DNA of 64,000 nucleotides from Patescibacteria group bacterium (GTDB taxonomy: Bacteria > Patescibacteriota > Minisyncoccia > Phycocordibacterales > PALSA-1337), in assembly GCA_038065395.1 (NCBI GenBank), contig JBBTRB010000003.1:85800-149799 (forward strand). The letters are read 5' to 3'. Each line of letters opens with the position of its first letter. The stretch's first letter is position 1. The translations under genes were made by a program, and so were the position numbers. Below, piece by piece: positions 3,660 to 60,221 of this stretch. The notes beneath the pieces are model-generated. The model had not been told where the DNA came from and ran no database searches. It saw nothing but the letters and a program-made list of their open reading frames with translations.

Positions 3660-4046
3660 TTATCCAGCCTGTGTGCCGGGAGGGATATCGCCATGCGGTT
3701 CGAGTAGTGAAAAAGCTCCCGCTTCTGTAGACACAGCGAAGATCATACCCTGACTCTCGAAGCCACGGATCGTGCGTGGTTCGAGGTTGGTGACGAACAT
3801 ACAGGTCTTGCCTGCAAGGATGGTGATATCAGGAAAATAGAGTGCAATCCCTGAAATGATCTGCCGAGGCTTCAAGACGACTTCCTTGGTTCCATCAGGT
3901 AGCAGGTTCTCGATCTTCTCGCCGAAGTCCACGGATAATTTCAAGAGTTTATCCGTGTCAGGAACTTTCTCAACAGAAAGGATCTTGCCTGCGCGTATTT
4001 CGACCTTTTTGAATTCATCGTAAGTGATCATGGGTGGATTATACAT
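3660..4046 (-). CDS. tRNA-binding protein (CsaA/EMAP-type OB fold)
   Basis: 128 aa: YDEFKKVEIRAGKILSVEKVPDTDKLLKLSVDFGE...MIFAV matches the CsaA/MetRS C-terminal tRNA-binding domain. Confidence 0.7.
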   Translation of the reverse strand: MYNPPMITYDEFKKVEIRAGKILSVEKVPDTDKLLKLSVDFGEKIENLLPDGTKEVVLKPRQIISGIALYFPDITILAGKTCMFVTNLEPRTIRGFESQGMIFAVSTEAGAFSLLEPHGDIPPGTQAG

Positions 4047-4118: not shown

Positions 4119-4493
4119 TTACTTCTTGTCCAAATAACTCTGTAGTATCAACGCCGCAGCCGATGCATCCGTGAGCTCAGTCTTCCCCTGGAATCGTTCA
4201 GCTTGCACACTGGTCATGAACTCTGGTTCCCAGTGAACAACGAATCCTACCACCTCGAGACTCTTCTTGAGCTCAGTTGCCGCCGGCAAGATGGCATTTG
4301 CCCCGCCTTTGTAGTTTCGCGACTCCCCTATCACGATCTCTGTGACACCATTCTTCTCTGCAATCTCCTGTATTTCTGAAATAAGTTTCGCAGAAGTCGC
4401 GATCACGACTGCAGGAAATGCAAACTTCGCTTCTTCATCCGAAAGCGCGATACCGACTCTTTTGGTGCCATAGTCTATGCCGAGGAGTTTCAT
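4119..4493 (-). CDS. ruvX: Holliday junction resolvase-like protein RuvX/YqgF
   Basis: 124 aa: MKLLGIDYGTKRVGIALSD is the canonical YqgF N-terminus. Confidence 0.8.
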   Translation of the reverse strand: MKLLGIDYGTKRVGIALSDEEAKFAFPAVVIATSAKLISEIQEIAEKNGVTEIVIGESRNYKGGANAILPAATELKKSLEVVGFVVHWEPEFMTSVQAERFQGKTELTDASAAALILQSYLDKK

Positions 4494-6099: not shown

Positions 6100-7119
6100 C
6101 TATTCGTTATTCTTAAGGATCTTTTTCACCTCCCTGTCGAAATCTGATTCGATCTTTTGATGTTTATTGAACTCTTTGTATTCCTCGATCGCTTTGGTAT
6201 CTGCATCCACCTTTGAGATCTGTCCTTTGCCAGCGAGGATTTTGTATTCGTTAAATGTCAGGAATTTATCGACACTCCCGGCGAACTCCTTCATGGTAAA
6301 CGTATTGTTACGTGCAATAAGACCTTCGATATAATCAAAAAAGCCTGTAACCGTCCGCTCGAGCTGTTTGATCTCGGATACTCCCAAATAATTCTTGGCG
6401 ATCGTCACGTCAGACTGCAACACTCTACCCTCCGGAGAGTTTTTCCATGTTGTAAGACCCATGTGTGGTGATCGTGCATTTGCCTTGGCGTGAATGATTT
6501 CCGGGCCAGTCTTGCCTGTTATAGCGAAGTGAAATTTGTTTTGTACCATGGCATAAAAATCCTGACTGACGGATGACTCGCGATCGTAGTCGATGCTACA
6601 TTCTGCAAAAATATCGGTGATCTGTTGGTACACTCGCCGTTCGCTCGCACGGATGGAACGTACACGCTCCAAAAGTTCTCGGAAATAATCCACGCTGAAT
6701 AGTTTTTTACCCTGTTTGAGCCTCTCATCGTCCAGTGCGAATCCTTTGATGATAAATTCTCGCAACACCTGGGTTGCCCATATACGAAACTGTGTGGCTC
6801 TTTTAGAGTTTACTCTGTAGCCTACGGCAATGACGGCATCGAGGTTGTAGTGTTGGGTATCGTACGATTTACCGTCATCTGCAGTTATCCGGAAAATCCG
6901 GACAACTGAATCTTCGCTCAATTCACTGCTTCTAAAGATGTTTTGAAGGTGTTCGCTGATCGTGCGCGTGTTGGCATCAAAAAGTTCGGCCATAAGCTTC
7001 TGAGTGAGCCAGACCATCTCTCCTTCTACACGAACCTCGATCTTGGGATTACCAGCCCCGGCAGTAAAGATCAGGAATTCGGCGGTGGTATTTCTTTGTA
7101 GGCCTTTATCATTCTTCAT
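6100..7119 (-). CDS. virulence RhuM family protein
   Basis: 339 aa: VWLTQKLMAELFDANTRTISEHLQNIF...DGKSYDTQHYNLDAVIAVGYRVNSKRATQFRIWATQVLREFIIKGFALDDERL matches the conserved RhuM core. Confidence 0.75.
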   Translation of the reverse strand: MKNDKGLQRNTTAEFLIFTAGAGNPKIEVRVEGEMVWLTQKLMAELFDANTRTISEHLQNIFRSSELSEDSVVRIFRITADDGKSYDTQHYNLDAVIAVGYRVNSKRATQFRIWATQVLREFIIKGFALDDERLKQGKKLFSVDYFRELLERVRSIRASERRVYQQITDIFAECSIDYDRESSVSQDFYAMVQNKFHFAITGKTGPEIIHAKANARSPHMGLTTWKNSPEGRVLQSDVTIAKNYLGVSEIKQLERTVTGFFDYIEGLIARNNTFTMKEFAGSVDKFLTFNEYKILAGKGQISKVDADTKAIEEYKEFNKHQKIESDFDREVKKILKNNE

Positions 7120-15468: not shown

Positions 15469-15525
15469 TTGCTGACCCTCTTCGCAGGCGCCACGTTCAA
15501 TACTTGTCACCCTCAGTTAATATAT

Positions 15526-15905
15526 GTCATCCCCGCGAAAGCGGGGATCCAGGATCATACCACTGACATGATAGATCCTTCCATTGAGGATTAGACTTCT
15601 CGATCAATTCAAGTTTCCACTTCCTACTCCACTTCTTAAGCTGTTTTTCTCTTGTCAAAGCAGCATTCACATCTATGGTTTCTTCAAAATATACTAATTG
15701 AGATATATCATATTTTTCAGTGAATCCAGGTATTATTTTGTGTATATGTTCGTATATACGACGTTCGAGATTATTGGTTACTCCAATATATAATGTTCCG
15801 TTTCTTTTGTTAGTGAGAATATAGATGTAGTAACTCATACCTACGATTGTAGCTAACTAACATACGGGATGCTAATCCTGGATTCCCGCTTTCGCGGGAA
15901 TGACA
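15526..15905. mobile_element. GIY-YIG gene bounded by 31-bp inverted hairpin repeats (candidate autonomous member of the hairpin-TIR repeat family)
   Basis: Left TIR 15526-15556 tgtcatccccgcgaaagcggggatccaggat; right TIR 15875-15905 atcctggattcccgctttcgcgggaatgaca, its reverse complement with two T/C changes. The subterminal aggatcaY is shared with the MITE-like copies at 35259 and 62618. Confidence 0.5.
15527..15838 (-). CDS. GIY-YIG nuclease family protein (YhbQ/COG2827-like URI domain)
   Basis: 103 aa: YIYILTNKRNGTLYIGVTNNLERRIYEH is the GIY-YIG core. The last 9 codons and the stop lie inside the left hairpin repeat. Confidence 0.7.
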   Translation of the reverse strand: MSYYIYILTNKRNGTLYIGVTNNLERRIYEHIHKIIPGFTEKYDISQLVYFEETIDVNAALTREKQLKKWSRKWKLELIEKSNPQWKDLSCQWYDPGSPLSRG

Positions 15906-17009: not shown

Positions 17010-17046
17010 GGCGTATCATCCTATAATAGCGATGATGCGCTTTTTT
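17010..17046. terminator. bidirectional intrinsic terminator between tRNA-Lys and the MazF-like gene
   Basis: Hairpin ggcgtatcatc-ctataatag-cgatgatgcgc followed by tttttt on plus, with an A-run before it (T-run on minus). It overlaps the last codons of the MazF-like ORF. Confidence 0.4.
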
Positions 17047-17426
17047 AATTCCTCAAAATCTTTCGTGGACATAGAACCTATTTTATATTTAAGTCTCTTA
17101 CTATCTATCAAACGAAGCTGGGACAGATTTGCCGTACTCACGGAGTCTATTCCGTGTCGAAATTCAAAGTAATATTTTCCAGACTTATTTCTTGAAGTCA
17201 GGGGTATGCCCCACAAAGTCTCCTTGTTGAATTTCTTTAAAATGACAACGGGTCGTAAAAATTCTTCGCCTTTACCATCCTGTTCAAAGCCCACATTCAT
17301 TCTCAGCAAGGAAAACCAAACATCCTTTTCATTGAAAAATGGAACTCTCGAGCCATTCTCATGGAGATCATACTTTTGGATATGCCACTTTTGAAAATCC
17401 TTTTTCATTGCGCACAAGTATATCAA
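17016..17426 (-). CDS. MazF/PemK family endoribonuclease toxin (apparently orphan)
   Basis: RPVVILKKF...LWGIPLTS...GKYYFEF...VSTANLSQLRLIDSKRL...IGSMSTKDFEELKKRIIAIIG aligns with E. coli MazF (RPAVVLSPF...YPFEVVL...ADQVKSIAWRARGATKKGTVAPEELQLIKAKINVLIG). Confidence 0.6.
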   Translation of the reverse strand: MIYLCAMKKDFQKWHIQKYDLHENGSRVPFFNEKDVWFSLLRMNVGFEQDGKGEEFLRPVVILKKFNKETLWGIPLTSRNKSGKYYFEFRHGIDSVSTANLSQLRLIDSKRLKYKIGSMSTKDFEELKKRIIAIIG

Positions 17427-18195: not shown

Positions 18196-20721
18196 TTATT
18201 TGAGATCTCCCCAATTCGCACCGACCGCCATCTCTGAGGTCAGTGTGATCCCTGCGATATCCTTGGGGTCAATGATCGATTCCATGATCGAGCGGATTTT
18301 CTCCCCTATTTCGTGTGCACGATCTTCGCGGATCTCATAGACCAGTTCGTCGTGCACCTGGAGTATCGGAAATGCCACATCAGTGAGACCTGCCTCCTTG
18401 AGCCAGCTGTCTACCTTGATCAATGCCAGCTTTACCACATCGGCTTCTGTCCCCTGGATCGGGGCATTGAAAGCCATGCGTTCGGCCTGTGCACGAATAT
18501 ACGGAATCTTGGAATTGATCCCCTCAAAATATCGACGACGACCAAAGAAGGTTTCTGTATACCCGGTACGAGCGGCGTCAGCCTTGACCTGGTCAATGTA
18601 TGCGGCGAGTGTAGAAAATGTCGCGAAATAATCATCCATGAATTTCTGAGCTTCGGCGCGATCGGTGCCGAGATTTTGTTTGAGCGCCATAACGCCCATG
18701 CCGTACAGGATGCCGAAGTTGATGACCTTGGCCTTGCGACGCATATCAGAAGTCACCTCGGTCAGTGGAACTTTGAATACCGAACTTGCAACCGACGTAT
18801 GGACATCTGTGCCATTTTTGAAAATATCGATCAACGTTTGATCCTTGGAGAGAAATGCTGCGATACGCAACTCGATCTGAGAATAGTCGAGTGACACCAG
18901 AGCAAAACCTTTCTCAGCTACGAACGCTTTGCGAATAGCTTTGCCCAGCTCGGACTTCACCGGGATATTTTGCAGATTCGGGTCGAGAGATGCCATACGA
19001 CCTGTCGTTGTCCCTGCGGGAATAAAGTCCGAATGCAGACGGTTGTTGCTATCGAGTTGTGGTGGGATAGCATCGATATAGGTAGAGAGGAGCTTTTGTA
19101 GTTCGCGATATTCGAAGATCATCGGAATGATCGGGTGCAGGTCACGGAGCTTCTCGAGTTCTGACTCACGTGTCGAACGTGCTCCCCCACTCGTCTTCTT
19201 CATGTTCTTGCCGACGAGTCCGAGCTTGTCGAACAGGATCTCACCGAGCTGTTTGGGTGAATTGATATTGAACTCAACCCCTGCGGCTGCAGTGATGTTT
19301 TTCTCCAAGAGTGCAAGTTCCTTGTGATATTTCTTGGAAAGATCTGCCAAGAATACTTTGTCGATCTTGACCCCACGCTCTTCCATCCGGTGCGTGATCG
19401 GGAGCAGGGGTAGCTCGAGTGTTTCGTATACGGTGCGGAGATTGCGCCTGTCGAGCTCTTCGAAGATCATTTTTTTGGCGACTTCATAGTCGTCAGTATT
19501 AGCGAAATTCAATATGTCTTCGAGTTGAGGATTGGTGGCATTGGAGTTTATGAGCCATAGTGCCACTCCGGTTTTCTCGATCTCTTCCTTGGAAACAAGA
19601 GGTGATTCTGCACCGCGGATCCCCGCCTGCGCGGGGATGACAGAAAATATGTCACCTTGCCCTCCCGTTTTGTCATCCCCGCGCAGGCGGGGATCTGCGC
19701 TCCCGACAGTAACTACACTCATTGCACTACTCTTCTTCCCTGCCAAGACATTTTCCAACCTTTGCCCGAGAGTTCGGAATTCCAACACATTCCACAACGC
19801 CTTTACCTTCTTGAGGTCAACGTTCTCTTTGAATGTCTTTTCTGGGAAGACGAAATCGATCGGTGCATCACGACGGATAGTCGCCAGCATCTTACTGAAC
19901 ATCGCCTCGTCTTTGTTATCTTTCAGGAGTTGTACGATACGTGGCGTGATCCCGGCTTTGATGAATGCATCTTCATGTCCTGCCTCAAGTTCCACATACA
20001 TATTCTCGAGTGTTCCGAATGAGGTGATGAGGATGGTCGCCGTCTTCTCGCCGACACCTTTGATCCCAGGAATATTGTCAGACGGATCGCCGCGAAGTCC
20101 TTTGTAGTCAGGGATGAGCTCTGGTCCAAAGCCAAATCTTTCCTGTACGGCTTTCTCGTCGTACATGATCGTATCTTTGATCCCCTTCTTGAGAGTGAAT
20201 ACTTTGACCTGCGTACCCGAGATCAGTTGCAACGTATCCATATCGCCAGAAGCGATGATGATCTCTAAATCTTCATCCGACCCGCGGATCCCCGCCTTCG
20301 CGGGGATGACAGGGTTCTTTTCCTCGCTTCCTGAATCTTGAATCATGAATCCCGCATTCTTGAGCTGCTCCACGATCGTCCCCAACATATCGTCAGCCTC
20401 AAAGCCTGCTTTGTCATAGATGGGAATATTGAGAGCCTCGAATACTTGCCGAGACGTATTGAGCTGACGGATCAGAGCATCATCGGTCTTTTGTCTACCC
20501 GCTTTGTATTCTTTGAAGACTTCATGTCGATGAGTCGGCCCTGCCAAGTCGTACGCAGCCACTATATAGTCTGGTTTGAGATCCTCAATGGTCTTGATCA
20601 GCATCGTTGAGAGTCCATATAGAGCTCCTGTCGGTTCGCCTTGTGCAGTCGAAAAGTCTGGCAATGCATGATATGCACGATGCAATATGGCATGCGAGTC
20701 GAGCAAAATGAGTCTTTTCAT
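18196..20721 (-). CDS. polA: DNA polymerase I
   Basis: 841 aa with an N-terminal 5'-3' exonuclease (GFEADDMLGT) and the C-terminal family A polymerase motifs (DYSQIELR, RRKAKVINFGILYG, QVHDELV). It carries repeat-encoded in-frame insertions. Confidence 0.9.
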   Translation of the reverse strand: MKRLILLDSHAILHRAYHALPDFSTAQGEPTGALYGLSTMLIKTIEDLKPDYIVAAYDLAGPTHRHEVFKEYKAGRQKTDDALIRQLNTSRQVFEALNIPIYDKAGFEADDMLGTIVEQLKNAGFMIQDSGSEEKNPVIPAKAGIRGSDEDLEIIIASGDMDTLQLISGTQVKVFTLKKGIKDTIMYDEKAVQERFGFGPELIPDYKGLRGDPSDNIPGIKGVGEKTATILITSFGTLENMYVELEAGHEDAFIKAGITPRIVQLLKDNKDEAMFSKMLATIRRDAPIDFVFPEKTFKENVDLKKVKALWNVLEFRTLGQRLENVLAGKKSSAMSVVTVGSADPRLRGDDKTGGQGDIFSVIPAQAGIRGAESPLVSKEEIEKTGVALWLINSNATNPQLEDILNFANTDDYEVAKKMIFEELDRRNLRTVYETLELPLLPITHRMEERGVKIDKVFLADLSKKYHKELALLEKNITAAAGVEFNINSPKQLGEILFDKLGLVGKNMKKTSGGARSTRESELEKLRDLHPIIPMIFEYRELQKLLSTYIDAIPPQLDSNNRLHSDFIPAGTTTGRMASLDPNLQNIPVKSELGKAIRKAFVAEKGFALVSLDYSQIELRIAAFLSKDQTLIDIFKNGTDVHTSVASSVFKVPLTEVTSDMRRKAKVINFGILYGMGVMALKQNLGTDRAEAQKFMDDYFATFSTLAAYIDQVKADAARTGYTETFFGRRRYFEGINSKIPYIRAQAERMAFNAPIQGTEADVVKLALIKVDSWLKEAGLTDVAFPILQVHDELVYEIREDRAHEIGEKIRSIMESIIDPKDIAGITLTSEMAVGANWGDLK
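19617..19695. repeat. inverted pair of hairpin repeats inside polA (CAGG-loop variant)
   Basis: ggatccccgcctgcgcggggatgaca (19617-19642) and tgtcatccccgcgcaggcggggatc (19671-19695). Read in the polA frame they give ADPRLRGDDK...VIPAQAGIRG. Confidence 0.8.
20286..20311. repeat. single hairpin repeat inside the polA 5'-3' exonuclease domain (GAAGGC-loop variant)
   Basis: ggatccccgccttcgcggggatgaca; in the polA frame it encodes VIPAKAGIRG. Confidence 0.8.
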
Positions 20722-30944: not shown

Positions 30945-32048
30945 TTAGCGGTTCATCGGCATCGCGAGATACATGAAGGTCTGATCCCCTGACACAGGTC
31001 GGATGACCATAGGACGATTCGGCCCACTGATCTGGAACGATACACTGTCAGCGTCGATCGACTGGAAACAATCGGCGATATATTTGCAGTTAAAATTGAT
31101 CTCTACCTTATCCCCTGTCAAAGCCGCATCTATGGTCGTACTGTTCTCACCAATATCACTGTTCTTGGTCTGAATTTCGAGCGTCTTGTTCTTGGGATCA
31201 ACGATCAGTCGTATCTGGTTGAACTTATCAGAAAATATGTTGGATATCTTGAGACTATTGAGGATGTCTTGCTTCAGGAATACCGCTTCGGTAACGAAAG
31301 ATTTTGGGATGATCTGTCGATAATCCGGGAAAACTCCGTCAGTAACGCGAGATACGAGATATATTCCCTTCGACTCGAAAGATATGAGGTTCTTGTTCAT
31401 TCGAACATCTGATGTACCCCCTATCACCTCCAAAGTTCTTACCAAGTCTGAAATATTCTTGAAAGGAACCAGGATATCATTCACATGGAGAGATTGTGGT
31501 GCTTTTATCTTCTTTTCCGCCAAGCGGAATGAGTCTGTGGCCGCAAACACGACGTTTTCCTCGTCTCGGTATATATACACACTCGAAAGTTCTGGTTTTA
31601 CACTCGATACCGAGGCGCTATACCATACCGATCGCAAACCTTTGACGAAAAGCTCTGTAGGCAAAGGAGTCGCATCCTCTGTTACCCGAGGAATACTCGG
31701 AAAATCCTCAGAAGGAACGGTTTTGATGGTGCATTTTGATTTTGCAGATGTTACGAGCATGTTTCCTGATACAAGCTCGAGAGTCACTGTAGGGTTCTGG
31801 TCAGGAAGCTGAGAAATGAAAGCTGAGATAACCTGAGCTGGTATAGCGACCACCCCTTCCCCTTCTACCTTGGCAGGAATAGTGACTTCGATACCAATGT
31901 CGAGGTTGGTTGCCCGTAGAACAACTTCGCCTTTCTTGGCCTCAAAAAGGATACAAGAAAGAACGGGTAGAGTTGCATGCTTGCCAGAAATCTTCTCTAC
32001 TAAGGAAATCGATTCTTTGAGTTTCTTTGTTTGAGTTTCTATTTTCAT
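30945..32048 (-). CDS. dnaN: DNA polymerase III subunit beta
   Basis: 367 aa with the three-domain clamp; MKIETQTKKLKESISLVEKISGKHATLPVLSCILFEAKKGEVVLRATNLDIGIEV. Confidence 0.85.
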   Translation of the reverse strand: MKIETQTKKLKESISLVEKISGKHATLPVLSCILFEAKKGEVVLRATNLDIGIEVTIPAKVEGEGVVAIPAQVISAFISQLPDQNPTVTLELVSGNMLVTSAKSKCTIKTVPSEDFPSIPRVTEDATPLPTELFVKGLRSVWYSASVSSVKPELSSVYIYRDEENVVFAATDSFRLAEKKIKAPQSLHVNDILVPFKNISDLVRTLEVIGGTSDVRMNKNLISFESKGIYLVSRVTDGVFPDYRQIIPKSFVTEAVFLKQDILNSLKISNIFSDKFNQIRLIVDPKNKTLEIQTKNSDIGENSTTIDAALTGDKVEINFNCKYIADCFQSIDADSVSFQISGPNRPMVIRPVSGDQTFMYLAMPMNR

Positions 32049-32286
32049 AAGTATTCTTTATATTAAACAAAACTTTTCGTTATTAGGGATGTGGAAAAGT
32101 GGATAACGTGATAAAAAGGCTCAACGGTAAGGTCAAATGAGAAGATCTATTCTGGGTATAACCTGAAGATCTTCGGGTGGTGTGTGAGTAGGTTCTCATG
32201 GTGGTGAAGTTATACTATTCTTATTCCTGATTTGTTCCGTACTTATTATCGACTTTTCCTTGAGATAACCACAGGTTAATCCACAG
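32049..32286. promoter_or_regulatory. putative oriC segment: DnaA-box cluster in the dnaA-dnaN gap
   Basis: tgtggaaaa, agtggataa, ataaccaca and taatccaca (each 1-2 mismatches from TTATCCACA/TGTGGATAA), plus the AT-rich stretch tctttatattaaacaaaac. Confidence 0.5.
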
Positions 32287-33618
32287 TTATATCATCGACC
32301 GGATCTGTGTGACCTCCTGAGTCAGGACACTGTCGGACTTGAGTTCTTCTTTGACCTTCTCGTAGGAGTGGATGACGGTAGTATGGTCTCTTCCTCCGAG
32401 TTTCTCCCCTATTGAAGGGAAAGATATGCCAAAGTCTTCTCGGAGGATATACATGACCATTTGTCGTGGGCGTACGATCTCTTTGCGGCGAGTCTTGTCG
32501 TATATGCTTTGTTCGTCGATATTGTAGAAATCAGACACGATCTTGACGACTTCCTTCACCGAGACCATCTTTTTTGGTCGAGTGTTGTTCTTGAGGATGT
32601 TCTTGATCTCATTGAGGTTGAGCTCTTTGTTCTTGAGCTGTGTCTGGCAGGCCACGATGTTCACTACTCCCTCTATCTCACGGATATTGTCCTGGATCGA
32701 AGAAGCGAGGAACTCCATGAGCTCCAAAGGAAGGGTTATGTTGTGTGTGGCGCATTTGGTACGGACGATGGCCATACGAGACTCTTGGTCTGGTTCGGGG
32801 ATATCGACCGACATGCCGGCATTGAAACGGCTACGAACACGCTCCTCGAGGCCAGGAATGACGTTGGGGTGTTTGTCAGATGAGAAGATGAGCTGTCTCC
32901 CTGAGTCTTTGAAGGTATTGAATAGGTGGAAGAATTCTTCTTGGAATTTCTCTTTGCTCGAGAAGAACTGCACGTCGTCCATGATGACTACGTCGTATTT
33001 GCGATATTTCTCCTTGAAAGCCTGAGCCTTGCCTTCTTGGAGGGCACTGAGGAACTCGGAACCAAATCGTTCTGAAGTGAGGTAGTAGATCTTCTTGTTC
33101 GGGAATGCAGTCTTGATCTGATTGCCGATGGCTTGGATAAGGTGTGTTTTGCCACGACCAGGACCTCCATATATGAGGAGTGGGTTGTACATCTGGCCGG
33201 GACTCTTGATGACGGTCTGAGAGGCGGCATGAGCGAGCTCATTGAATGGTCCAACAATGAAATTTTCGAAGGTATAGCGAGGGTTGAGGTTGTTCTCCTT
33301 GTCGATATAGAAATCCTGCAGTGGCATGGCCATCGTCGGCATCATGACGGGCTTCTTGCCACGAGAAGAGTCGCCTTTTGAGCCGGATTCTTTCTCGATA
33401 ACATACTCGAGAGCTCTTACCTGTTCATTTGTCTGGCGCAAAATACGCAAAATCGAGTTGTGGAACTTCTTGACCAGCCATTCTTGAGTGAAAGAGTTAG
33501 GAACTCCGAGATATACTACCCCCTCTTCTTCTTTGATGATGCGAGTTTCTTTGAACCACGTGGAGAAGTTAGCCTGCGAAACAGCAGTTTCTATTTCTAC
33601 GAGAGCAGTCTGCCACAT
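32287..33618 (-). CDS. dnaA: chromosomal replication initiator protein DnaA
   Basis: GGPGRGKTHLIQAIGN Walker A, the DnaA signature and a C-terminal HTH; start taken at MWQTALVEIE. Confidence 0.9.
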   Translation of the reverse strand: MWQTALVEIETAVSQANFSTWFKETRIIKEEEGVVYLGVPNSFTQEWLVKKFHNSILRILRQTNEQVRALEYVIEKESGSKGDSSRGKKPVMMPTMAMPLQDFYIDKENNLNPRYTFENFIVGPFNELAHAASQTVIKSPGQMYNPLLIYGGPGRGKTHLIQAIGNQIKTAFPNKKIYYLTSERFGSEFLSALQEGKAQAFKEKYRKYDVVIMDDVQFFSSKEKFQEEFFHLFNTFKDSGRQLIFSSDKHPNVIPGLEERVRSRFNAGMSVDIPEPDQESRMAIVRTKCATHNITLPLELMEFLASSIQDNIREIEGVVNIVACQTQLKNKELNLNEIKNILKNNTRPKKMVSVKEVVKIVSDFYNIDEQSIYDKTRRKEIVRPRQMVMYILREDFGISFPSIGEKLGGRDHTTVIHSYEKVKEELKSDSVLTQEVTQIRSMI

Positions 33619-33747
33619 TTTGGAGTAGTCATGCATAAAATAGGTGCTATAAGTATATACCTGTTTATAGTTCTGCAAACTTGTGGAGGACGTAAAGTTA
33701 TGTTGATAAGTTGGGGACACGAAGTTTTGTTGTTTATTATGTCATTC

Positions 33748-35233: not shown

Positions 35234-35258
35234 GGTGTCTGTGTCATTCCTGCTTCTC

Positions 35259-35446
35259 TTGTCATCCCCGCGAAAGCGGGGATCCAGAGGCAAGGGCGTG
35301 GCTACTGACTTATATCTATATCATCACAAACTATTAGGGACCATCCCTGTAATTGCATGCCGAACCTGTCACGTTCAGCGAAGATATAGATTAATCGGAC
35401 TATATACTGGAAGTGATCCTGGATCCCCGCTTTCGCGGGGATGACA
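35259..35446. mobile_element. MITE-like element: hairpin TIRs around a 125-bp ORF-less core
   Basis: tgtcatccccgcgaaagcggggatccagagg ... atcctggatccccgctttcgcggggatgaca; the core is about 78% identical to the reverse complement of the 62618-62804 core. Confidence 0.6.
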
Positions 35447-35451
35447 CAGTA

Positions 35452-36747
35452 CTAATTACTGGACACCAGATCCAACGACCACAATGATAGGTCGTTTTTG
35501 TTCATGAAGAAAAGGAAGTCGTCACGTTCGTCGAGTTGAAGATTGAAAGAGTTGATGATTCGATCTGCCTTGTCAGAGAGCGAAGTCACAAGACGCACCT
35601 CACCTGTCGTTGCATTCACATCCCATATTTTGTCACTGGTTGATACAGTCCCCTTGTACCAGTCATCTGGATACGAAGCGTCGGGGAAAGATGTAGGAAC
35701 CCCACAATAGACGATGTGTTTGTAGAAATTACCCCAGACACATTTCTCGGCAAGCGTTTTGATACCTGGATCGAGGGTCTTTTCGGTACTGACAGTGTAG
35801 AGTGCCGAAGAGATCATTCCTGCCTGGTCGGTGAATGAAGCGAAGACCTGTTTTGCATCATGACTAGTACGAGTGGTAAGACCGACGGTTGGGCCGAGGA
35901 CTTTCTTCCATATACCGGTCTTTGGATTGACGAAATAGAGGAAGCCGCTTTGTTGAGAAGATGCTTTTGTAGTAAGGGTGATGGTGTTCTCTTCTGGCCA
36001 TTCGGCTACGAGCTGTGTCAGAGGTGTGTCGAATATACGTGTGATAGCCGAACCCTGGAATGTAGAGACGTACCCAACTCCCCTACCGTTCTCCTCGATG
36101 AGCATGAATACCTTGTCCTTTCGGGGTGAGGTTGCATACGAGATGATATTCGGAGGGAGTTTTTGACCCTTGAGTTCATACGGAGTTGTGCCAAGAGACT
36201 CTGGTGTCGAGGTGCCAACAGTCTTGGTTCGGATCAGTCCTGCATAAAGAGTTGTTGCTACCTCGGTGGTTTCTTCGAGTACAGAGGCGATGAATGCTGA
36301 CAGGTCTCTGTTCCATAGGCTCGTATAGGTGCGCGGTACAACTGTGTTGGAGAGTACGGAGGTGTCGAGTGTGTCACTGTGAGCTTCGATGACATTGCCA
36401 CGACCACGATCTACCCAGCGTACGAAGGTGGTCCGGGCAGTGGTGCTCGCACCGTACCCACCGACAGGTGTGTCACTCAAGAGTCGTAGGCTTGGAATAA
36501 CGACGACAGGCTGTTGCTGGGTCGAAGTTGCCTGTGAGGTCGGTTCGCCGGTACTCGGTGTCTGGGTCGGCATGTTCCCTGTTGAAGGACGGTTGAGAGG
36601 TTGGAAACCCGTGATACGACCGATCGGGTCAATGGTCTGGGTTACGGAGTTGCTTGTAGGTGCAATGAACCAATACGCAAAACCCGCAAGGATGATTACC
36701 AGGAGAAGTGTTGCTATAAGAAGGATTGTTTTTTTCTTTGATGACAT
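35452..36747 (-). CDS. hypothetical membrane-anchored secreted protein (T4SS operon)
   Basis: 431 aa with an N-terminal transmembrane helix and a Thr/Ser-rich linker. Confidence 0.5.
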   Translation of the reverse strand: MSSKKKTILLIATLLLVIILAGFAYWFIAPTSNSVTQTIDPIGRITGFQPLNRPSTGNMPTQTPSTGEPTSQATSTQQQPVVVIPSLRLLSDTPVGGYGASTTARTTFVRWVDRGRGNVIEAHSDTLDTSVLSNTVVPRTYTSLWNRDLSAFIASVLEETTEVATTLYAGLIRTKTVGTSTPESLGTTPYELKGQKLPPNIISYATSPRKDKVFMLIEENGRGVGYVSTFQGSAITRIFDTPLTQLVAEWPEENTITLTTKASSQQSGFLYFVNPKTGIWKKVLGPTVGLTTRTSHDAKQVFASFTDQAGMISSALYTVSTEKTLDPGIKTLAEKCVWGNFYKHIVYCGVPTSFPDASYPDDWYKGTVSTSDKIWDVNATTGEVRLVTSLSDKADRIINSFNLQLDERDDFLFFMNKNDLSLWSLDLVSSN

Positions 36748-36749
36748 GG

Positions 36750-37967
36750 TTATAACGTTTTTGCTTTTGCGACGAGTGCCCGAGTGGCTTCTACTGCCTC
36801 ATTTGCTTTTTTCATAAGGAAAATCCGTGTTTCTTCATTGGGGTTATTGATTATCCTGTCTGTTCGAATTTTCTGAATACGATCTTCGATGATAGCGTTC
36901 TTCTGTGTTAGGTCTGCCACAAGAGCCTTCTTCGCCGCCTCTGTTTTCAACATACCTGTTTGGTTATCGTATTCAACTTGTATCTGGAATACCATCGATG
37001 CTTCTTGGCCGATAGCAAGTTCTACAAGTTTTCTCTCTTTGTATTTCTCCAGCGCCTGTAGTTGATCGGGATCAGGAGCAAGGTTCTCCAGCTGACTCTT
37101 TTGGACTTCGTATACCTTCTCAACCTCTTGTACGGCTTTTGTCCAGTTAACGTTAAGGAAGCCATCTTTGTAATTGTAAGGACGAGCAGTCACATCTAAG
37201 GCAGTTTTTCCGATAACCAGTTTGCTGTTCGCGGTGTCGCGGCGTATTTCATCACTGAGTGAGTCGATCTCTGCTTCGAGGGTTTCGATTTCTTTTGCAA
37301 GTTCTTCGTCGGATAAGGATGAATTCTTCTTGAGCTCCTCTATTTCAGTAGCGGCACGAACGATGAGTGCTGTACGTTCAGCGTTTTTCTTCTCTGTATC
37401 AGTAAGCATTTTCTGAGTTTCGGCCATATTGGTACGGAAAGCAGAGGCCTCTTTGCTCAATTCACTGAATATTCCTGCTGACACGCTCTCATACCGTATA
37501 CTCAACGGAGGCACCAACGTCGTCGGTATTGCCACCAGTCTCGGGTCTATCGTGCGGAGGATAATATATGAAGTAAGGACGAGGAGTAGTCCGAGTGCAG
37601 CGTTCTTGACCTTCTCGAGGCCGGCACCCTTGCCCTGCCATGAGTCCGTACTCATATATTGGAATCCTCCCCAGACGATCATGAACACTGCCGATACTGC
37701 AGCCAGAGCGATGGCAAGGTTGAAGAGATATTGTACGTAGTATTTGAAGTTGAGTTGCGTCTGGGGTTGACCAGCAGTACTTGCGGTACATGGGTCATCT
37801 GCCTCAGGGTTCTGACTCGGCACACACGGGAGCGGTTCGAGCAATGTATATGTGGGCAGTGGGTTGTTCGCAGGATTGCCGCCAGTATTGCCCCCTACTG
37901 TTGACTGAGCATACACAGAAGTCCCGAGAGACAAGGCGATGATCGTGAGGATAAAGATTTTTTTCAT
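36750..37967 (-). CDS. VirB2/TrbC pilin-like protein with long coiled-coil C-terminal extension
   Basis: Signal peptide followed by two hydrophobic helices (AIALAAVSAVFMIVWGGFQYM and LGLLLVLTSYIIL), then about 250 aa of heptad-rich sequence. Confidence 0.4.
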   Translation of the reverse strand: MKKIFILTIIALSLGTSVYAQSTVGGNTGGNPANNPLPTYTLLEPLPCVPSQNPEADDPCTASTAGQPQTQLNFKYYVQYLFNLAIALAAVSAVFMIVWGGFQYMSTDSWQGKGAGLEKVKNAALGLLLVLTSYIILRTIDPRLVAIPTTLVPPLSIRYESVSAGIFSELSKEASAFRTNMAETQKMLTDTEKKNAERTALIVRAATEIEELKKNSSLSDEELAKEIETLEAEIDSLSDEIRRDTANSKLVIGKTALDVTARPYNYKDGFLNVNWTKAVQEVEKVYEVQKSQLENLAPDPDQLQALEKYKERKLVELAIGQEASMVFQIQVEYDNQTGMLKTEAAKKALVADLTQKNAIIEDRIQKIRTDRIINNPNEETRIFLMKKANEAVEATRALVAKAKTL

Positions 37968-37973
37968 AGGATT

Positions 37974-38999
37974 TTAGAATGAAATAAGGCTTCTCTCGTC
38001 CGGCTTCGAGAAAGAAGCGGTGAACGAAGTCGCTGCTTCCTGGAGGATGTTGAGGTTATGTTTGATCTGGAGTTCGATCGACGAGCGACCTTCTTCTTCG
38101 GGTGCACGGAGGACGATCGACTGGTTCTTCGCCAGATCTTCTCGGAGTGATCCGTTGACTGTCCAGAGGTAAGAGAGGTTCCCTGCCCCTTCGACAGGTT
38201 TGTTGAAACCATACGGTACTGCCAAGATAGAACTCTCACGTTGTCGGCCGAGATTGATATTGCTGCTGGCGGATTTATTGAAAAGAGGTCCATAGAGAGG
38301 GTCATCGATATACAAGAGTAACGATGCTGCCTGTGGAGATACGGATATATACCCTGTTGTTGCGGCACTGTTGTCTCTGGTGCGAGCGGTGACACTGATG
38401 GTATAAGGCCGAGGTACGATACCACCTTCGACTATCACGGAATTCTTGCCATAGCCAGATTGGTCACTGATAGCACGGTCGTTGCGTTGCCATTCGTAGA
38501 TCAGAGTTTTGGGGTCGTATTCGACTCCTGCACTATTGGCAAGATGCGGTATGGCGACGATCTTGACGTTATTTTCGAAGACGGGACTGATCTTGCCCAG
38601 GAAAAGTGGCGGAACATAGCCATCTGACTCGAGGATCAGGTCGACCGATCCAGAGCCGATAGTGATGGACTCTGCGAGCTGTTTGCCACTCGGAGCGATC
38701 ACGACGACACCGACCGCCACCTTTTTGCCCAGTGCTGGGGCGGTGACTTCTACTGTGTCTGCACCGAGTCCACGACGTCTCTCCTTGCCTTCGACGATCC
38801 ATACTACCGTGGATCCGCGGATATCTTCGACATAACTACGTACGGTCACGGTGATGGTCTGACCTGGTACAGGGTTGCTCGAAGACAGGGATAGGTCGAG
38901 TCCCCCTACCGAAGCAGGTACAGTCTGCGCGAACGTGACCGAAGAGAAGAACAGAGAGAAAATACAGACAAAAAAGATATAAAAAGACTTACCTTGCAT
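37974..38999 (-). CDS. hypothetical secreted protein (T4SS operon)
   Basis: 341 aa with a signal peptide. Confidence 0.5.
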   Translation of the reverse strand: MQGKSFYIFFVCIFSLFFSSVTFAQTVPASVGGLDLSLSSSNPVPGQTITVTVRSYVEDIRGSTVVWIVEGKERRRGLGADTVEVTAPALGKKVAVGVVVIAPSGKQLAESITIGSGSVDLILESDGYVPPLFLGKISPVFENNVKIVAIPHLANSAGVEYDPKTLIYEWQRNDRAISDQSGYGKNSVIVEGGIVPRPYTISVTARTRDNSAATTGYISVSPQAASLLLYIDDPLYGPLFNKSASSNINLGRQRESSILAVPYGFNKPVEGAGNLSYLWTVNGSLREDLAKNQSIVLRAPEEEGRSSIELQIKHNLNILQEAATSFTASFSKPDERSLISF

Positions 39000-39020
39000 G
39001 CATATATTGTAGCATAGAGA

Positions 39021-39488
39021 CTACGCAGCTTCTTCGTAATCCTGTGGAGCACGAACTCCGTCACTCACGAGGGGCTGGATGCTAGAGCGACTTGGTGCTG
39101 AGGGTTGAGGTTGGCTCGGTTGACGGACACCACCGGCATTAAAGGTTGGTTGTTTAGTGAATTTGCCATGAGTTGCGTCTTTGAGAGAGATACCTGTTTT
39201 TTCTTGAACCTTGAGAAATGCGAGCAGAATGATCATGCCCACTACGATCGTTGGCAAGGATTGCACGATAGGTAGTATCTCTGCGAGACCAGAAACTACC
39301 ATTGGCGCCAAACGACGGGCATTGAGGAGACCAAAACCTTTGTAATAGAAGTACCACGCTACACAGAACCAAAACGCCGGTCCAACCGCGATACCTACTC
39401 CAGGAATGATGCTCAAGAGGTCTGCTAGAAGCGCCACGAACACGAGTATGATCATGGCCATAATGCCTATCTGTGGAGGATTGTTCAT
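39021..39488 (-). CDS. hypothetical small membrane protein (T4SS operon)
   Basis: 155 aa with three hydrophobic helices and a Pro/Ser-rich tail. Confidence 0.45.
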   Translation of the reverse strand: MNNPPQIGIMAMIILVFVALLADLLSIIPGVGIAVGPAFWFCVAWYFYYKGFGLLNARRLAPMVVSGLAEILPIVQSLPTIVVGMIILLAFLKVQEKTGISLKDATHGKFTKQPTFNAGGVRQPSQPQPSAPSRSSIQPLVSDGVRAPQDYEEAA

Positions 39489-39504
39489 GTGAGGTAGTAT
39501 ACCA

Positions 39505-41316
39505 TTACCCTACCTGCTCCAACTCCTTCTTGGCTTGCTGGATCTGCATGACCTGAGCTGGGTTGGTGGTGATGATCTGGTCTTCGGTGTAGGATGCCAC
39601 GATCTTGATCGCAACGTGCTTGAGGCCGACGAAGAATATACCCTCCCCTACGTCTGACTCGAGCAAGAGATACTTTTCCTCATCGGTGAGGTTGAAGGTC
39701 TTCTGGATACTGTCGATAACTGCTGGGGATTGCTTGAGGAGGATCTGGATCGATGAGTTGGTGACGATCGGTAGGCCATACGGCGAGTTCAGGAAGTCCC
39801 CTACGTCCTGGGTGATTGTCATCAGTCCCAAGAAGTATTTGCGACCTCTTTTTGCCAGACTAAAGAGGAACGAAGCGGTGTCTTCGGATTTCATCATCCA
39901 CCATGCTTCATCGATGACCAGGAGGCGTTTCTTGAGGTTCTTGCGGACAGCGTTCCATATATAGTGCGTGACGATGTACATGGCAACTGGTTTGAGCTCG
40001 TCTTCCATGTCGCGCAGTGAGAACACCACGAACTTTTTGTTGATGTCGACGTTCGAAGGACGGTTGATGAAGCCAGACCAGGTACCTTTTGTGTATTTGC
40101 CGAGACGCTCTACCAGAGAGCTTGCCCCTTCCATGCCGGCAAGTACGAGCTCGAAGTCAGAGAGGAGTGGTGGTTCGACATTGCGGAAGTCGGACTCCGG
40201 TGTGATGTCTTTGAGGGCATATGTCTCGGTGATGGCGCGGTCGATGAGCGCATCTTCTTCCTGGGTGAGACCTCCCAACATGATACGGAAGAGACCGACG
40301 AGGTTGATGGTGTTGGAGCGCAGGATGTCAGCCGCGGACTCGTCTTGCCCAGGGATCGGCAGATCAAAAGGGTTGATATGGTGTTCGGAGTTCAGAGATA
40401 TATTGAAATATTTGCCTCCCGTAGCCTCGGCCATATACTCGTATTCTTTTTCTGGATCAATGACGATGACATCGGTATCGAACATCAGTGTTCGTAGGAT
40501 CTCGAGTTTGGTGCAGTAGGACTTACCTGCACCAGCTACGGCGAACGTCACAGAGTTATAGTTGCCCAGCAAGAATCTGTCAAAAAGCACCAACGAGGAG
40601 TTGTGACGGTTGATACCATAGAGGATGCCTTTGTCTGAGGTCAGGTCAAAAGAGACAAATGGGAAAAGGCTCGAAAGGGGCGAAGAGTTGAGCTTGGAAT
40701 GTACGGCGAGCTGGTCGTCCCCTGTTGGGATCACACTCTTGAACCCTTGCTCTTGTTGGAAGAGAGCTGGTTTGACGTAGATGAGTTTGGATTCGAGGAT
40801 GGACTTGATCTCGGACTCGAGCTTGTCGAGTTCGCCTTCGTTGTCTGCAAAGAGGGTGATGTAGACGCCAACATCGAAGAGGTGTTCTTGCGCTTGCATC
40901 AGTTGGTCGCGGAGCGCCTCGAGATCTTGGTAGGCGGTATCGAGTGCAGGGTCGCGTACGAGTCCTTTGCTCTCTCGGCGAGAGATCTGACTCTGAACCT
41001 CGGCAACTTTCTTTTGGAAATGACGGAGCACCTTGGCGGTATCGATCGGATGTACGAAAATAGAGACGTTGAAGACCTTGTCGAGGTTGATGATCGGGGC
41101 GAACCAGCTCTCATCGAGGAATCGTGGATATGAGATGACGAAGAGTGTTCGACCGACCTTCTCGCCGAGGTTGATGTCTTTGGAGCTGACCTTGAGTGCC
41201 GAAGGAGCGATGACATCCTTGAGCTCGAGCACGCCAGCCTGGTATATCTCCTCGGGCAGGATGGAGACGATCGGACTGGCTTCTTTTTTACCTAATAATT
41301 TTGAAAATATGGACAT
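39505..41316 (-). CDS. VirB4/TrsE/PrgJ-like T4SS ATPase, C-terminal 603-aa ORF
   Basis: Walker A AVAGAGKSY and Walker B LLVIDEAWWM. The Walker A sits only about 260 aa from the N-terminus, so roughly 200 aa of a normal VirB4 N-terminus are missing. Confidence 0.8.
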   Translation of the reverse strand: MSIFSKLLGKKEASPIVSILPEEIYQAGVLELKDVIAPSALKVSSKDINLGEKVGRTLFVISYPRFLDESWFAPIINLDKVFNVSIFVHPIDTAKVLRHFQKKVAEVQSQISRRESKGLVRDPALDTAYQDLEALRDQLMQAQEHLFDVGVYITLFADNEGELDKLESEIKSILESKLIYVKPALFQQEQGFKSVIPTGDDQLAVHSKLNSSPLSSLFPFVSFDLTSDKGILYGINRHNSSLVLFDRFLLGNYNSVTFAVAGAGKSYCTKLEILRTLMFDTDVIVIDPEKEYEYMAEATGGKYFNISLNSEHHINPFDLPIPGQDESAADILRSNTINLVGLFRIMLGGLTQEEDALIDRAITETYALKDITPESDFRNVEPPLLSDFELVLAGMEGASSLVERLGKYTKGTWSGFINRPSNVDINKKFVVFSLRDMEDELKPVAMYIVTHYIWNAVRKNLKKRLLVIDEAWWMMKSEDTASFLFSLAKRGRKYFLGLMTITQDVGDFLNSPYGLPIVTNSSIQILLKQSPAVIDSIQKTFNLTDEEKYLLLESDVGEGIFFVGLKHVAIKIVASYTEDQIITTNPAQVMQIQQAKKELEQVG

Positions 41317-41320
41317 GGGA

Positions 41321-41419
41321 AAGTGTAATTGGAACCTAGTAACTCGTAACTAGAAAAACACACACATGGCTTTTTCTAGTTACAAATTTCTTTTTACGAG
41401 TTACGGTGTTCATGTGATT
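41321..41419. repeat. 99-bp repeat, copy 1 (inside the split VirB4 gene)
   Basis: Character-by-character identical to 42049-42147. Internal inverted half-sites tagtaactcgtaactag / ctagttac...cgagttac; contains stops in the VirB4 frame. Confidence 0.85.
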
Positions 41420-42048
41420 TGTATCGGCTTCTCGGTCTCGCCCGGGTTGAAGATTTTGTAGAATAATTCTACCACTTCTTCGGTTCCGAGTTCTGCACTG
41501 CGGACGCCGCAGCGTACCAGTCCCTGTTCGACTACTGATACTCGCTGTTCGAGCTGACTCCTGTATTCCTGGAATTTGTCATCGAGCGATCCGGCATCCG
41601 CTCCCTTCTTGCCCTTGGGCATCATGTTGGCGAGAGGGTTCTTGCTGGCGGTCATGAGTGGTGGATCGTACGGTATGACCACGAAGAAACTCTTGGACAT
41701 GATGTTGGTGCTCTCGACAAAGGTGCGGATGAACTCGATATATTCTCGGACCTGGATCTTCATGAGCTCAGTGAGCTGCTCTTTGTACTGCCCTTCGAGG
41801 AGGGCAATGTATGGCCTGATATCGAGCTTCTTGGACTGGATACAAATCTGGATCGAGAAATCCAGCGAGTTGAGGAAGTTCTGGAACTGCATCATGATCG
41901 AATTCTGCTCATCAGAAGACTTGAGAGCGAAGTTCAGTGACGATGCCAGGATGATGGCACGCATGCCGCCGTTCTTGAGGATGACCACACCATCGCGGAT
42001 CTCCTGGATCGGTACAAAGTTTTGGGTTGATTGGGGTGCTGTAGGCAT
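41410..42048 (-). CDS. VirB4/TrsE-like N-terminal domain ORF (212 aa)
   Basis: NFVPIQEIRDGVVILKNGGMRAIILASSLNFALKSSDEQNSIMMQFQNFLNS matches the N-terminal domain of Gram-positive VirB4 homologs (TrsE/Orf16/PrgJ-type). It is in the same reading frame as the 603-aa ORF. Confidence 0.55.
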   Translation of the reverse strand: MPTAPQSTQNFVPIQEIRDGVVILKNGGMRAIILASSLNFALKSSDEQNSIMMQFQNFLNSLDFSIQICIQSKKLDIRPYIALLEGQYKEQLTELMKIQVREYIEFIRTFVESTNIMSKSFFVVIPYDPPLMTASKNPLANMMPKGKKGADAGSLDDKFQEYRSQLEQRVSVVEQGLVRCGVRSAELGTEEVVELFYKIFNPGETEKPIQIT

Positions 42049-42147
42049 AAGTGTAATTGGAACCTAGTAACTCGTAACTAGAAAAACACACACATGGCTT
42101 TTTCTAGTTACAAATTTCTTTTTACGAGTTACGGTGTTCATGTGATT
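42049..42147. repeat. 99-bp repeat, copy 2 (between the PrgI-like gene and the VirB4 N-terminal ORF)
   Basis: Identical to 41321-41419. Confidence 0.85.
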
Positions 42148-42580
42148 ACTTCTGGTTACGGTTAGAATACATACTCTCTTTGATATCCAAACTCCAGGTC
42201 ATGTCTTTGAGTTTGCTGTTGGAGATCTTGGGGATCATGACAGACGCATAGGTCTTGGCATCTTTGAGTGCAGTACGCGTGTCGGTTGGTCGTGGCTTGT
42301 CTTCTTTTTTCCAAATATAGAGCTTGGCATTGCTGTAGTATTTGAATGCTGACTCGGCGATGTTTATGAAAGGTCTGTTATGGAGCTTGAAGAAAGCGAG
42401 CGCCGCAGAGATACCGAGGATCACCATGATGGGAATGAGCGAGAGGACAAAACTCTTGAGGAAAACATATACCAGGAATGAAAGGCCTCCCCCACCCGCG
42501 AGATATATGAACTGTTTGAGAGTCAGTGGTCCGAAGATCTTATCTTCGACTTCGATGAATTGAGGAACTTGGAAACGCAT
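42146..42580 (-). CDS. PrgI family protein (VirB3-like, Gram-positive T4SS)
   Basis: 144 aa: MRFQVPQFIEVEDKIFGPLTLKQFIYLAGGGGLSFLVY followed by a second transmembrane helix, as in the PrgI family (PF12666). Confidence 0.5.
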   Translation of the reverse strand: MRFQVPQFIEVEDKIFGPLTLKQFIYLAGGGGLSFLVYVFLKSFVLSLIPIMVILGISAALAFFKLHNRPFINIAESAFKYYSNAKLYIWKKEDKPRPTDTRTALKDAKTYASVMIPKISNSKLKDMTWSLDIKESMYSNRNQK

Positions 42581-42608
42581 CGATAGTATTATACCTCACC
42601 CCCACTCC

Positions 42609-43331: not shown

Positions 43332-43332
43332 A

Positions 43333-59984: not shown

Positions 59985-60104
59985 AAATTAGTTACAAGTT
60001 AAAAAGTATAAAGTAAAAGTAGACCTAAGACTCAATATATGAAAATTAATAAAAGCTCTGTAAGTATATGCGCTATCTACCTTCTTGTCACTTCGCTCAA
60101 TATT

Positions 60105-60194
60105 CGTCATCCCCGCGAAGGCGGGGATCTGCGCACAAGAATAGACAAATATTAACAGACTAGGTCATGGATCCCCGCCTTCGCGGGGATGACA
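60105..60194. repeat. bare inverted pair of hairpin repeats (GAAGGC-loop variant) with a 39-bp spacer
   Basis: cgtcatccccgcgaaggcggggatc (60105-60129) and ggatccccgccttcgcggggatgaca (60169-60194). Confidence 0.8.
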
Positions 60195-60221
60195 GGAATA
60201 TGGATGGGGTGACACACGAAA

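Follow-up and report, generated by a model that had tools for sequence, protein, structure and literature searches.

How can palindromic repeats be lodged in the coding sequence of DNA polymerase I without interrupting it, and from where do they originate? This question is raised by a stretch of 64,000 nucleotides from a Patescibacteria group bacterium (contig JBBTRB010000003.1, positions 85,800 to 149,799, hereafter the window), in which the polA gene carries a pair of inverted hairpin repeats. The explanation put forward here, which is considered highly probable, is that a head-to-head homodimer of the CGTC-1/SRM repeat family was inserted in-frame in the linker of polA, together with a solo copy of the same repeat elsewhere in the gene, and that these copies are tolerated selfish units of an SRM/ssnA system, in which the repeat is associated with a small GIY-YIG nuclease.

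A first reading of this DNA, based on the sequence alone, had located two inverted hairpin units 28 nt apart at 19617-19695 in the polA linker and had noted that both are translated in-frame, as ADPRLRGDDK and VIPAQAGIRG. Both points agree with the sequence and with the Pfam domain boundaries. The 841-aa open reading frame (ORF) is continuous and reads straight through the dimer (...GSADPRLRGDDKTGGQGDIFSVIPAQAGIRGAESP...), the peptides encoded across its units being GSADPRLRGDDK and VIPAQAGIR. Arm 1 is read in reverse by polA and encodes ADPRLRGDDK (aa 342-351; frame r1, codon phase 0), while arm 2 is read forward and encodes (S)VIPAQAGIRG (aa 360-370). The TGTC heads of the two units face each other across the 28 nt that separate them. 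The sequence-only reading had nevertheless reported the inverted pair alone: it understated the extent of the repetition, since arms of 39 nt were found, and it missed a third in-frame polA copy, the solo unit at 20284-20311 (Table 1), where the PolA segment exceeds that of the nearest orthologs by about 21 aa. None of the three units breaks the reading frame. The full inverted repeat can be folded either into a single long hairpin, whose inter-arm stem is perfect over 25 bp, or into two small hairpins, with a fold energy over 19607-19706 of -42.2 kcal/mol for DNA (z -8.6) and -67.1 kcal/mol for RNA (z -8.1). The six-frame translation of the unit agrees with the earlier statement that five of the six frames are stop-free. 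The sole stop is the TGA found in ATGAC (frame r3), and it is precisely this stop that ends the GIY-YIG ORF at 15527, after ...DPGSPLSRG.

The oriented unit can be written as (T/C)GTC, AT(C/T)CCCGC, G(A/C)A(A/G), GCGGG(G/A)AT, C(C/T)(A/G)(G/C/T). Units of 28 nt were searched with the published SRM pattern HGTCWYN(0-2)YYVSBRHN(0-5)WNVSBRGN(0-2)RNCYNB (Chenal 2025, Nat Commun 16:2388), which gave 11 exact matches in the window against 0.22 expected from Markov-1 random sequences. The hairpin core taken separately gave 8 matches at <=3 mismatches against 0 in 100 shuffles, and 11 copies are obtained once the ATTCCC variant is admitted. The head is TGTC in ten copies and CGTC in one, and three of the eleven stand one position away from the Neisseria NTS consensus, CGTCATTCCCGCGMAVGCGGGAATCYRG (Chenal 2025, Nat Commun 16:2388). 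The CGTC-1 family of repetitive extragenic palindromes (REPs) has been defined by a CGTC/TGTC tag, an 8-bp stem with A-T pairs at the first two positions, a 4-nt loop and a tail close to CCA (Di Nocera 2013, BMC Genomics 14:522), and has been equated with dRS3 in Neisseria and with RPE-6 in R. conorii (Di Nocera, De Gregorio & Rocco 2013, BMC Genomics 14:522). All 11 copies of the window possess the 8-bp stem AT(C/T)CCCGC / GCGGG(G/A)AT with a 4-nt NNNN loop; the tail is CCAG or CCAT in seven of them, and CCGC or CTGC in the three polA copies and in the copy at 60105. Because all 11 copies fit the published SRM motif and, in head, stem and loop, the CGTC-1 family, the repeat is not new: on these motif matches it is the CGTC-1 REP, that is to say the SRM/NTS repeat, the dRS3 of Neisseria and the RPE-6 of Rickettsia conorii. 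A scan of the whole window with Rfam at the gathering threshold returned four tRNAs only.

The window is mostly coding, and eight of its 11 copies are nevertheless intergenic or situated at gene ends, a distribution that is consistent with selection against frame-breaking copies; the three truly intragenic copies are all in polA. Four of the five pairs are arranged tail-to-tail, the polA pair being the only head-to-head one, and the GCAG loop of its two arms is found in no other copy of the window. Two of the tail-to-tail pairs form composite elements that are about 75% identical across some 210 nt, and their similarity continues for about 25 nt more on the 5' side of one head. The architecture of a third, shorter pair (60105-60194) is also found in and after the polA gene of a relative (locus L006). 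Furthermore, a GTCAC(C/T)-like motif, which lies outside the published NTS/SRM definition, was observed in several copies at a distance of 12-15 nt on the 5' side of the TGTC head, and could indicate a recognition or cleavage region of greater extent.

Among the checks proposed by the sequence-only reading were an alignment with orthologs and a mapping of the segment on a structure, and the results of both are in keeping with an insertion. The nearest PolA orthologs (P0002-P0005), which have 80-81% identity and the same TsaE-PolA-HolA synteny, are devoid of all three units, and no match to the SRM pattern was found in 4 x 22 kb of their loci. Judging from these orthologs, the polA units are lineage-specific insertions and not ancestral sequence. 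It could be objected that the units are an assembly artefact, given that repeats can mislead assemblers and that the host sequence is a metagenome-assembled genome (MAG), or else that a conserved ancestral PolA sequence merely resembles the repeat. Such an explanation is extremely improbable. The window PolA is a 100% match to the NCBI entry 'MAG: DNA polymerase [Patescibacteria group bacterium]', and this 841-aa protein is recorded in identical form on 5 contigs (the longest, CAYHKE010000001.1 of GCA_964357315.1, of 761,713 bp) in NCBI and ENA, which makes a misassembly of the polA units unlikely. In addition, the frame is intact across three separate units, the orthologs lack the segment, and analogous in-frame units are present in independently assembled relatives.

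The domains of PolA identified with Pfam (PF02739, PF01367, PF00476) are the N domain of the 5'-nuclease (aa 3-125), the SAM fold (aa 200-294) and the family-A polymerase (aa 458-839), so that the dimer is positioned after 5_3_exonuc, which ends at aa 294, and before DNA_pol_A, which starts at aa 458. An AlphaFold2 model was built from a 30-sequence alignment (mean predicted local distance difference test score, pLDDT, 79). Its only long segments with pLDDT <50 are aa 127-149 and 330-374, both in coil and coinciding with the regions that bear the units, and the domains flanking these segments are confidently folded. Taq Pol I is the top structural match, and the copies fall outside its conserved domains. 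On this structure the solo unit corresponds to a helix-strand turn (Taq 128-137) just before the strand that carries the metal-binding aspartates, and the dimer to the interdomain linker that follows the 5'-nuclease domain (after Taq 281); a KlenTaq-like structure picks up again at about aa 375 of PolA. The whole linker and vestigial-exonuclease region is very short. According to this model, the polA units are confined to predicted disordered loops that tolerate insertion. As a separate observation, the 3'-5' exonuclease domain is not recognisable in these PolA proteins of Paceibacteria (aa 319-426 in the window PolA), and only about 60 structured residues separate the linker from the polymerase domain in the window PolA, versus about 130 in Taq.

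These two places are variable well beyond the window. Among 120 PolA homologs, all the variation in length is concentrated at the same two sites, which span 5-78 aa (site 1) and 21-106 aa (site 2), while the protein outside them measures 747-808 aa. SRM peptides occupy these two sites in 6 of the 120 homologs. The repeats were verified in the DNA of four other homologs (loci L006-L009), and decayed copies are present in L116. The SRM pairs of L006-L009 are tail-to-tail, with a spacing of 64 or 115 nt, the window pair being the sole head-to-head one. Every PolA that carries SRMs has closer relatives free of them, and this points either to several acquisitions or to an old insertion renewed by gene conversion.

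The GIY-YIG ORF at 15527, situated about 4 kb from the polA dimer, is probably the partner of the repeat, a putative Ssn nuclease, and not a chance neighbour. The SsnA protein, a single-domain GIY-YIG nuclease of 94 aa, binds NTS only as single-stranded DNA and cuts it a few nt upstream, and a copy of the motif typically lies at either end of the ssn genes (Chenal 2025, Nat Commun 16:2388). The ssnA-like gene is the only gene of the window flanked by SRM units, and its TGA stop codon falls in the head of the downstream one. Residues Y6, Y17 and E64 of its product match the positions mutated in the SsnA of N. meningitidis. Small homologs are counted in thousands, many of them from Patescibacteria; the best matches of a PDB sequence search with this ORF were UPF0213 GIY-YIG proteins, all weak. 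A different partner can be envisaged, since the doublet architecture and the long-hairpin potential of the units resemble those of REPINs. The units would then be classical REP/REPIN sequences mobilised by a RAYT (REP-associated tyrosine transposase, of the IS200/IS605 type) and not by the GIY-YIG protein. This is highly improbable: the head is TGTC or CGTC instead of GTAG, the only unit-flanked gene is the GIY-YIG gene, no Y1_Tnp or other transposase domain was detected by Pfam in the 39 ORFs scanned in the 64-kb window, polA included, and no RAYT flanked by CGTC units was reported by Di Nocera 2013 (BMC Genomics 14:522).

The site of the ssnA-like gene was also compared with that of relatives. 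The convergent junction between the SpoU and Fpg genes measures 448 nt in the window, the SRM-ssnA-SRM cassette being lodged there; relatives show 8 nt, 21 nt or an overlap at this junction. Reciprocally, in the relative located on one contig with L004, a 157-aa gene and a VirB4-like gene are the neighbours of the ssn gene, and their junction measures only 16 nt in the window. Since the cassette sites are reciprocally filled and empty in the two genomes, this comparison suggests that the cassette is mobile, the site of each genome being empty in the other. Several smaller observations concern the same elements. In the relative L118 the ssn gene is flanked by full SRMs accompanied by tandem half-units with a period of about 22 nt (five copies, ...GATAATTCGCGAGGATGACA...), at 3900-3970 and 4290-4405. 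The SpoU/Fpg junctions of L002 (14389-14617) and L003 (14389-14549) contain a different insert, similar to a miniature transposable element of the inverted-repeat type (MITE), with terminal inverted repeats AAAGATTGTATATAGGTG; a 20-nt fragment of this insert (GTGGCGCCTGCGAAGAGGGT) also lies beside the ssnA cassette of the window (15469-15524). This convergent junction thus seems to collect small elements. The possibility that the composites at 35260-35446 and 62618-62804 are internally deleted forms of ssnA found no statistical support, as their alignment with the cassette did not score above that of shuffled interiors; TBLASTN of the composite interiors gave the insignificant remnants YIYIITN and YIYIIAN at the position of the GIY motif, which are at most suggestive.

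A mechanism can be proposed by analogy with the Neisseria system (Chenal 2025). The hairpin would be bound by the Ssn nuclease in single-stranded DNA, and a nick would follow on the 5' side of the TGTC head, at a distance of a few nt. Both predicted cut sites of the polA dimer would then be located in the 28-nt spacer, on opposite strands, and the predicted single-stranded substrate would carry TGTCATCCCCGCGMAGGCGGGGATC. Solo units, dimers and the SRM-ssnA-SRM cassette could spread by nick-and-repair or by a single-strand transposition-like process. Purifying selection would subsequently keep only those coding copies that preserve the frame, avoid the stop frame and sit in tolerant loops, and the polA copies would be tolerated passengers without a function of their own.

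Several observations weigh against this explanation. The NCBIfam match of the GIY-YIG ORF is only sub-threshold, and to a group-I-intron endonuclease. Chenal 2025 (Nat Commun 16:2388) demonstrated cleavage by Ssn and not transposition. There is no close empty-site allele of polA: at about 80% identity, the linker is too diverged for the recognition of borders or of a target duplication, and neither could be defined in the alignment of polA DNA with L001-L004 or in that of L116 with L117 (83% nt identity). The 13 units present in six polA genes (window, L006-L009 and L116) are, without exception, in one codon phase, in which the GTC of the head is a codon and the product is VIPAKAGIQ or LDSRLRGND. 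Four other frames are also stop-free, and a selection that tolerates any stop-free frame does not predict this single phase; it could result from selection at the peptide level, from shared ancestry combined with gene conversion, or from an insertion bias. Finally, the net length gain relative to the nearest orthologs amounts to only about 14 aa, and the GQGD of the spacer resembles their QGD, so that the dimer may not correspond to one arrival.

This last point leads to another history of the pair, in which two solo units were inserted separately around an ancestral linker (GQGD...) and their arms were later homogenised by gene conversion or by cruciform-templated repair. The origin of the dimer spacer (19643-19670) is indeed uncertain on present alignments, because its GQGD matches the QGD found at the aligned position of the linker in the nearest orthologs, GGQGDIFS standing opposite (A/V)GQGDTVGS. 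The gain of about 14 aa is close to twice the 7-9 aa encoded by a single unit, and solo units do exist, for instance at 20284-20311. The match is limited, however, to four residues, whose GGTGAC is also the GTCACC motif found 5' of other copies. Both arms have the GCAG loop unique in the window, and their complementarity is perfect over 25 bp and still 87% across 39 nt. In addition, the form in which the family is normally repeated elsewhere is a head-to-head homodimer with the same loop pair. A scan of contigs recovered 109 head-to-head dimers of the same variant in other genomes, mostly Proteobacteria with some Gemmatimonadetes and Bacteroidetes; none came from the MAG of the window, which is apparently not a species representative. 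These dimers are recurring units, with spacers and flanks that are conserved but genome-specific, in many phyla, and CTGC/GCAG is their commonest loop pair (31/109); this recurrence also speaks for mobility. Two separate insertions are regarded as rather unlikely.

The constancy of the codon phase raises the question of a domestication of the polA copies, which could serve as Ssn targets limiting recombination or transformation at polA, as an mRNA stem acting in RNase III or translation control of the PolA level, or through the encoded peptide. In several lineages of Paceibacteria, SRMs are present at the same two sites of PolA, always in one codon phase, and the 25-bp RNA stem is highly stable (-67 kcal/mol). 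Moreover, the NTS/SsnA pair modulates transformation in Neisseria, and intragenic REPs are enriched in replication and repair genes (Di Nocera 2013). A domestication is nonetheless decidedly improbable. SRMs are present in only 6 of 120 homologs and are lacking in the nearest relatives; their arrangement varies with the lineage (head-to-head, tail-to-tail or solo, with spacings from 56 to 115 nt); the sites coincide with loops of the protein that are hypervariable in general, and disorder is predicted for the peptides encoded there.

The fixed codon phase could also be accommodated by a more ambitious hypothesis, in which SRM-ssnA-SRM and its hairpin derivatives constitute an active mobile element of Patescibacteria driven by the GIY-YIG nuclease, a class of transposon without conventional transposase. 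Insertion would not be random, and two loops of Pol I would be preferred. Pol I would perhaps process the nick or gap made by Ssn during insertion, and the recurrent polA copies would then reflect how the mechanism works and not only the outcome of tolerance. This hypothesis is judged unlikely, and the insertion of tolerated units is retained as the preferred explanation.

How does this locus compare with the systems already described? CGTC and GTAG REPs inserted in-frame, encoding 20-30 aa and often dimeric, were reported to be enriched in replication and repair genes, DNA polymerase I being among those listed (Di Nocera 2013). As in that family, whose units are mostly organised in head-to-head homodimers, the repeat of the window is dispersed and present in high copy number, its copies lie mostly between convergent or unidirectional genes with some in-frame intragenic ones, and the polA pair is a head-to-head homodimer. 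The differences lie in the host, a MAG of Patescibacteria/Paceibacterota while the 2013 survey found CGTC repeats in five phyla, mostly alpha-Proteobacteria; in the stem variant (ATCCCCGC); in the tail of the polA copies, CCGC or CTGC instead of CCA; and in the 4:1 ratio of tail-to-tail to head-to-head pairs, whereas tail-to-tail dimers were called rare by Di Nocera 2013.

With the NTS/SRM-Ssn system, the locus shares exact matches to the SRM pattern, a GIY-YIG gene of about 100 aa placed between two units, and the residues Y6, Y17 and E64, features that are known here from sequence. Patescibacteria are not mentioned in the main text of Chenal 2025, and the mobility of NTS-ssnA-NTS was only hypothesised there (Chenal 2025, Nat Commun 16:2388). 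The reciprocal empty and filled cassette sites and the composite element that occurs twice are signs of mobility that go beyond that paper.

The sequence-only reading had likened this coding-tolerant repeat to the Rickettsia palindromic elements (RPEs) and to the Correia elements of Neisseria. The first comparison holds, as CGTC-1 and RPE-6 are the same family, but the Neisseria counterpart is dRS3/NTS and not the Correia element. Correia elements are MITEs of about 100-155 bp with terminal inverted repeats of about 26 bp and a TA target duplication. They (also named NEMIS) resemble the present repeat loosely, as small dispersed inverted repeats of a small genome that affect neighbouring genes; the units described here are 28-nt hairpins. 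The resemblance to RPEs is closer, since these too are palindromic insertions made in-frame in essential genes of a small genome, at surface positions compatible with the protein fold (Ogata et al. 2000). The insertions of Rickettsia are translated, and here translation is predicted from the DNA. RPE-1, of about 100-150 bp, is unrelated in sequence, only the short RPE-4 and RPE-6 belonging to the CGTC super-family. Lastly, the inverted doublets, their folding as one long hairpin, their status of replicative unit and the single-copy gene flanked by units are reminiscent of REPIN/RAYT (Bertels & Rainey 2011; Nunvar 2010), from which the present system is distinguished by its TGTC/CGTC tag in place of GTAG, by a GIY-YIG nuclease in place of a Y1 transposase, and by the lack of a RAYT in the window.

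The in-frame insertion is thus in itself ordinary for the CGTC-1/SRM family and has been known since 2013, while RPEs were described in 2000 and the nuclease partner in 2025. What is new is the host, together with the indications of cassette mobility drawn from the comparison of genomes and the single codon phase common to the polA units. Among the papers searched, none mentioned Patescibacteria or the candidate phyla radiation (CPR) together with REP or RPE repeats. The locus extends a known pair of repeat and nuclease, SRM/NTS with Ssn, to the ultra-small genomes of Patescibacteria, and it documents the expansion of a repeat in a single lineage, with 11 copies in 64 kb, while about 90 kb from the closest relatives contain none. 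It also has consequences for annotation: the peptides VIPAKAGIQ, DSRLRGND and IPAFAGMT of CPR proteins are better read as translated repeat units than as conserved motifs, and most of the variation in PolA length within the clade represents insertion debris in two loops. The cassette sites and the composite element bring modest comparative support to the mobility of NTS-ssnA-NTS, the open question of Chenal 2025.

Table 1. Positions, in the window, of the repeat units and of the genes associated with them
Feature	Position	Strand	Basis or remark
ssnA-like gene, single-domain GIY-YIG nuclease of 103 aa (predicted)	15527-15838	minus	ORF; Pfam GIY-YIG 1.6e-17
SRM unit at 3' end of ssnA-like gene, head outward	15525-15552	plus	SRM match
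SRM unit at 5' end of ssnA-like gene, head outward	15878-15905	minus	one position off the Neisseria NTS consensus
polA (DNA polymerase I, 841 aa)	18196-20721	minus	ORF and translation; hosts three SRM units
Full inverted repeat	19607-19706	.	arms 19607-19645 and 19668-19706, 39 nt, 87% complementary
SRM/CGTC-1 unit, arm 2 of head-to-head dimer, TGTCATCCCCGCGCAGGCGGGGATCCGC on coding strand	19615-19642	minus	SRM match, six-frame translation
Dimer spacer, 28 nt	19643-19670	minus	sequence; encodes part of KTGGQGDIFS
SRM/CGTC-1 unit, arm 1 of head-to-head dimer, TGTCATCCCCGCGCAGGCGGGGATCTGC	19671-19698	plus	exact SRM pattern match
Third, solo SRM unit in polA	20284-20311	minus	PVIPAKAGIRG, aa 137-146; surface turn of the 5'-nuclease domain, immediately ahead of the metal-binding strand
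Composite tail-to-tail element, SRM-~131 nt-SRM	35260-35446	plus	convergent intergenic region
Composite tail-to-tail element, second copy, opposite orientation	62618-62804	minus	SRM matches
Mini tail-to-tail SRM pair, 34-nt spacer	60105-60194	.	divergent intergenic region
GTCAC(C/T)-like motif sites	15500-15524, 19655-19670, 35240-35259, 60085-60104, 60195-60215

Other features of the window deserve a brief description. A type IV secretion-like cluster extends over 35452-43400 and comprises a pilin of the type IV secretion system, with VirB4-like, TraC-like and PrgI-like proteins deduced from annotated homologs of L118. The VirB4-like protein shares 94.9% identity with its counterpart in a relative for which the PolA identity is only about 80%, and this discrepancy suggests a recent horizontal transfer of the cluster. 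The dnaN and dnaA genes are placed at 30945-33720 by synteny with L001, and on this basis the window probably spans the region of the replication origin, about 10 kb from polA. About 560 nt separate a gene for a XerC/D-type tyrosine recombinase (60754-61785) from the mini SRM pair (60105-60194), and dRS3 of Neisseria has been reported as the target of a phage recombinase. A gene for a PemK/MazF-type toxin (17016-17426) adjoins holA, and a gene of the RhuM family is present at 6100-7119.

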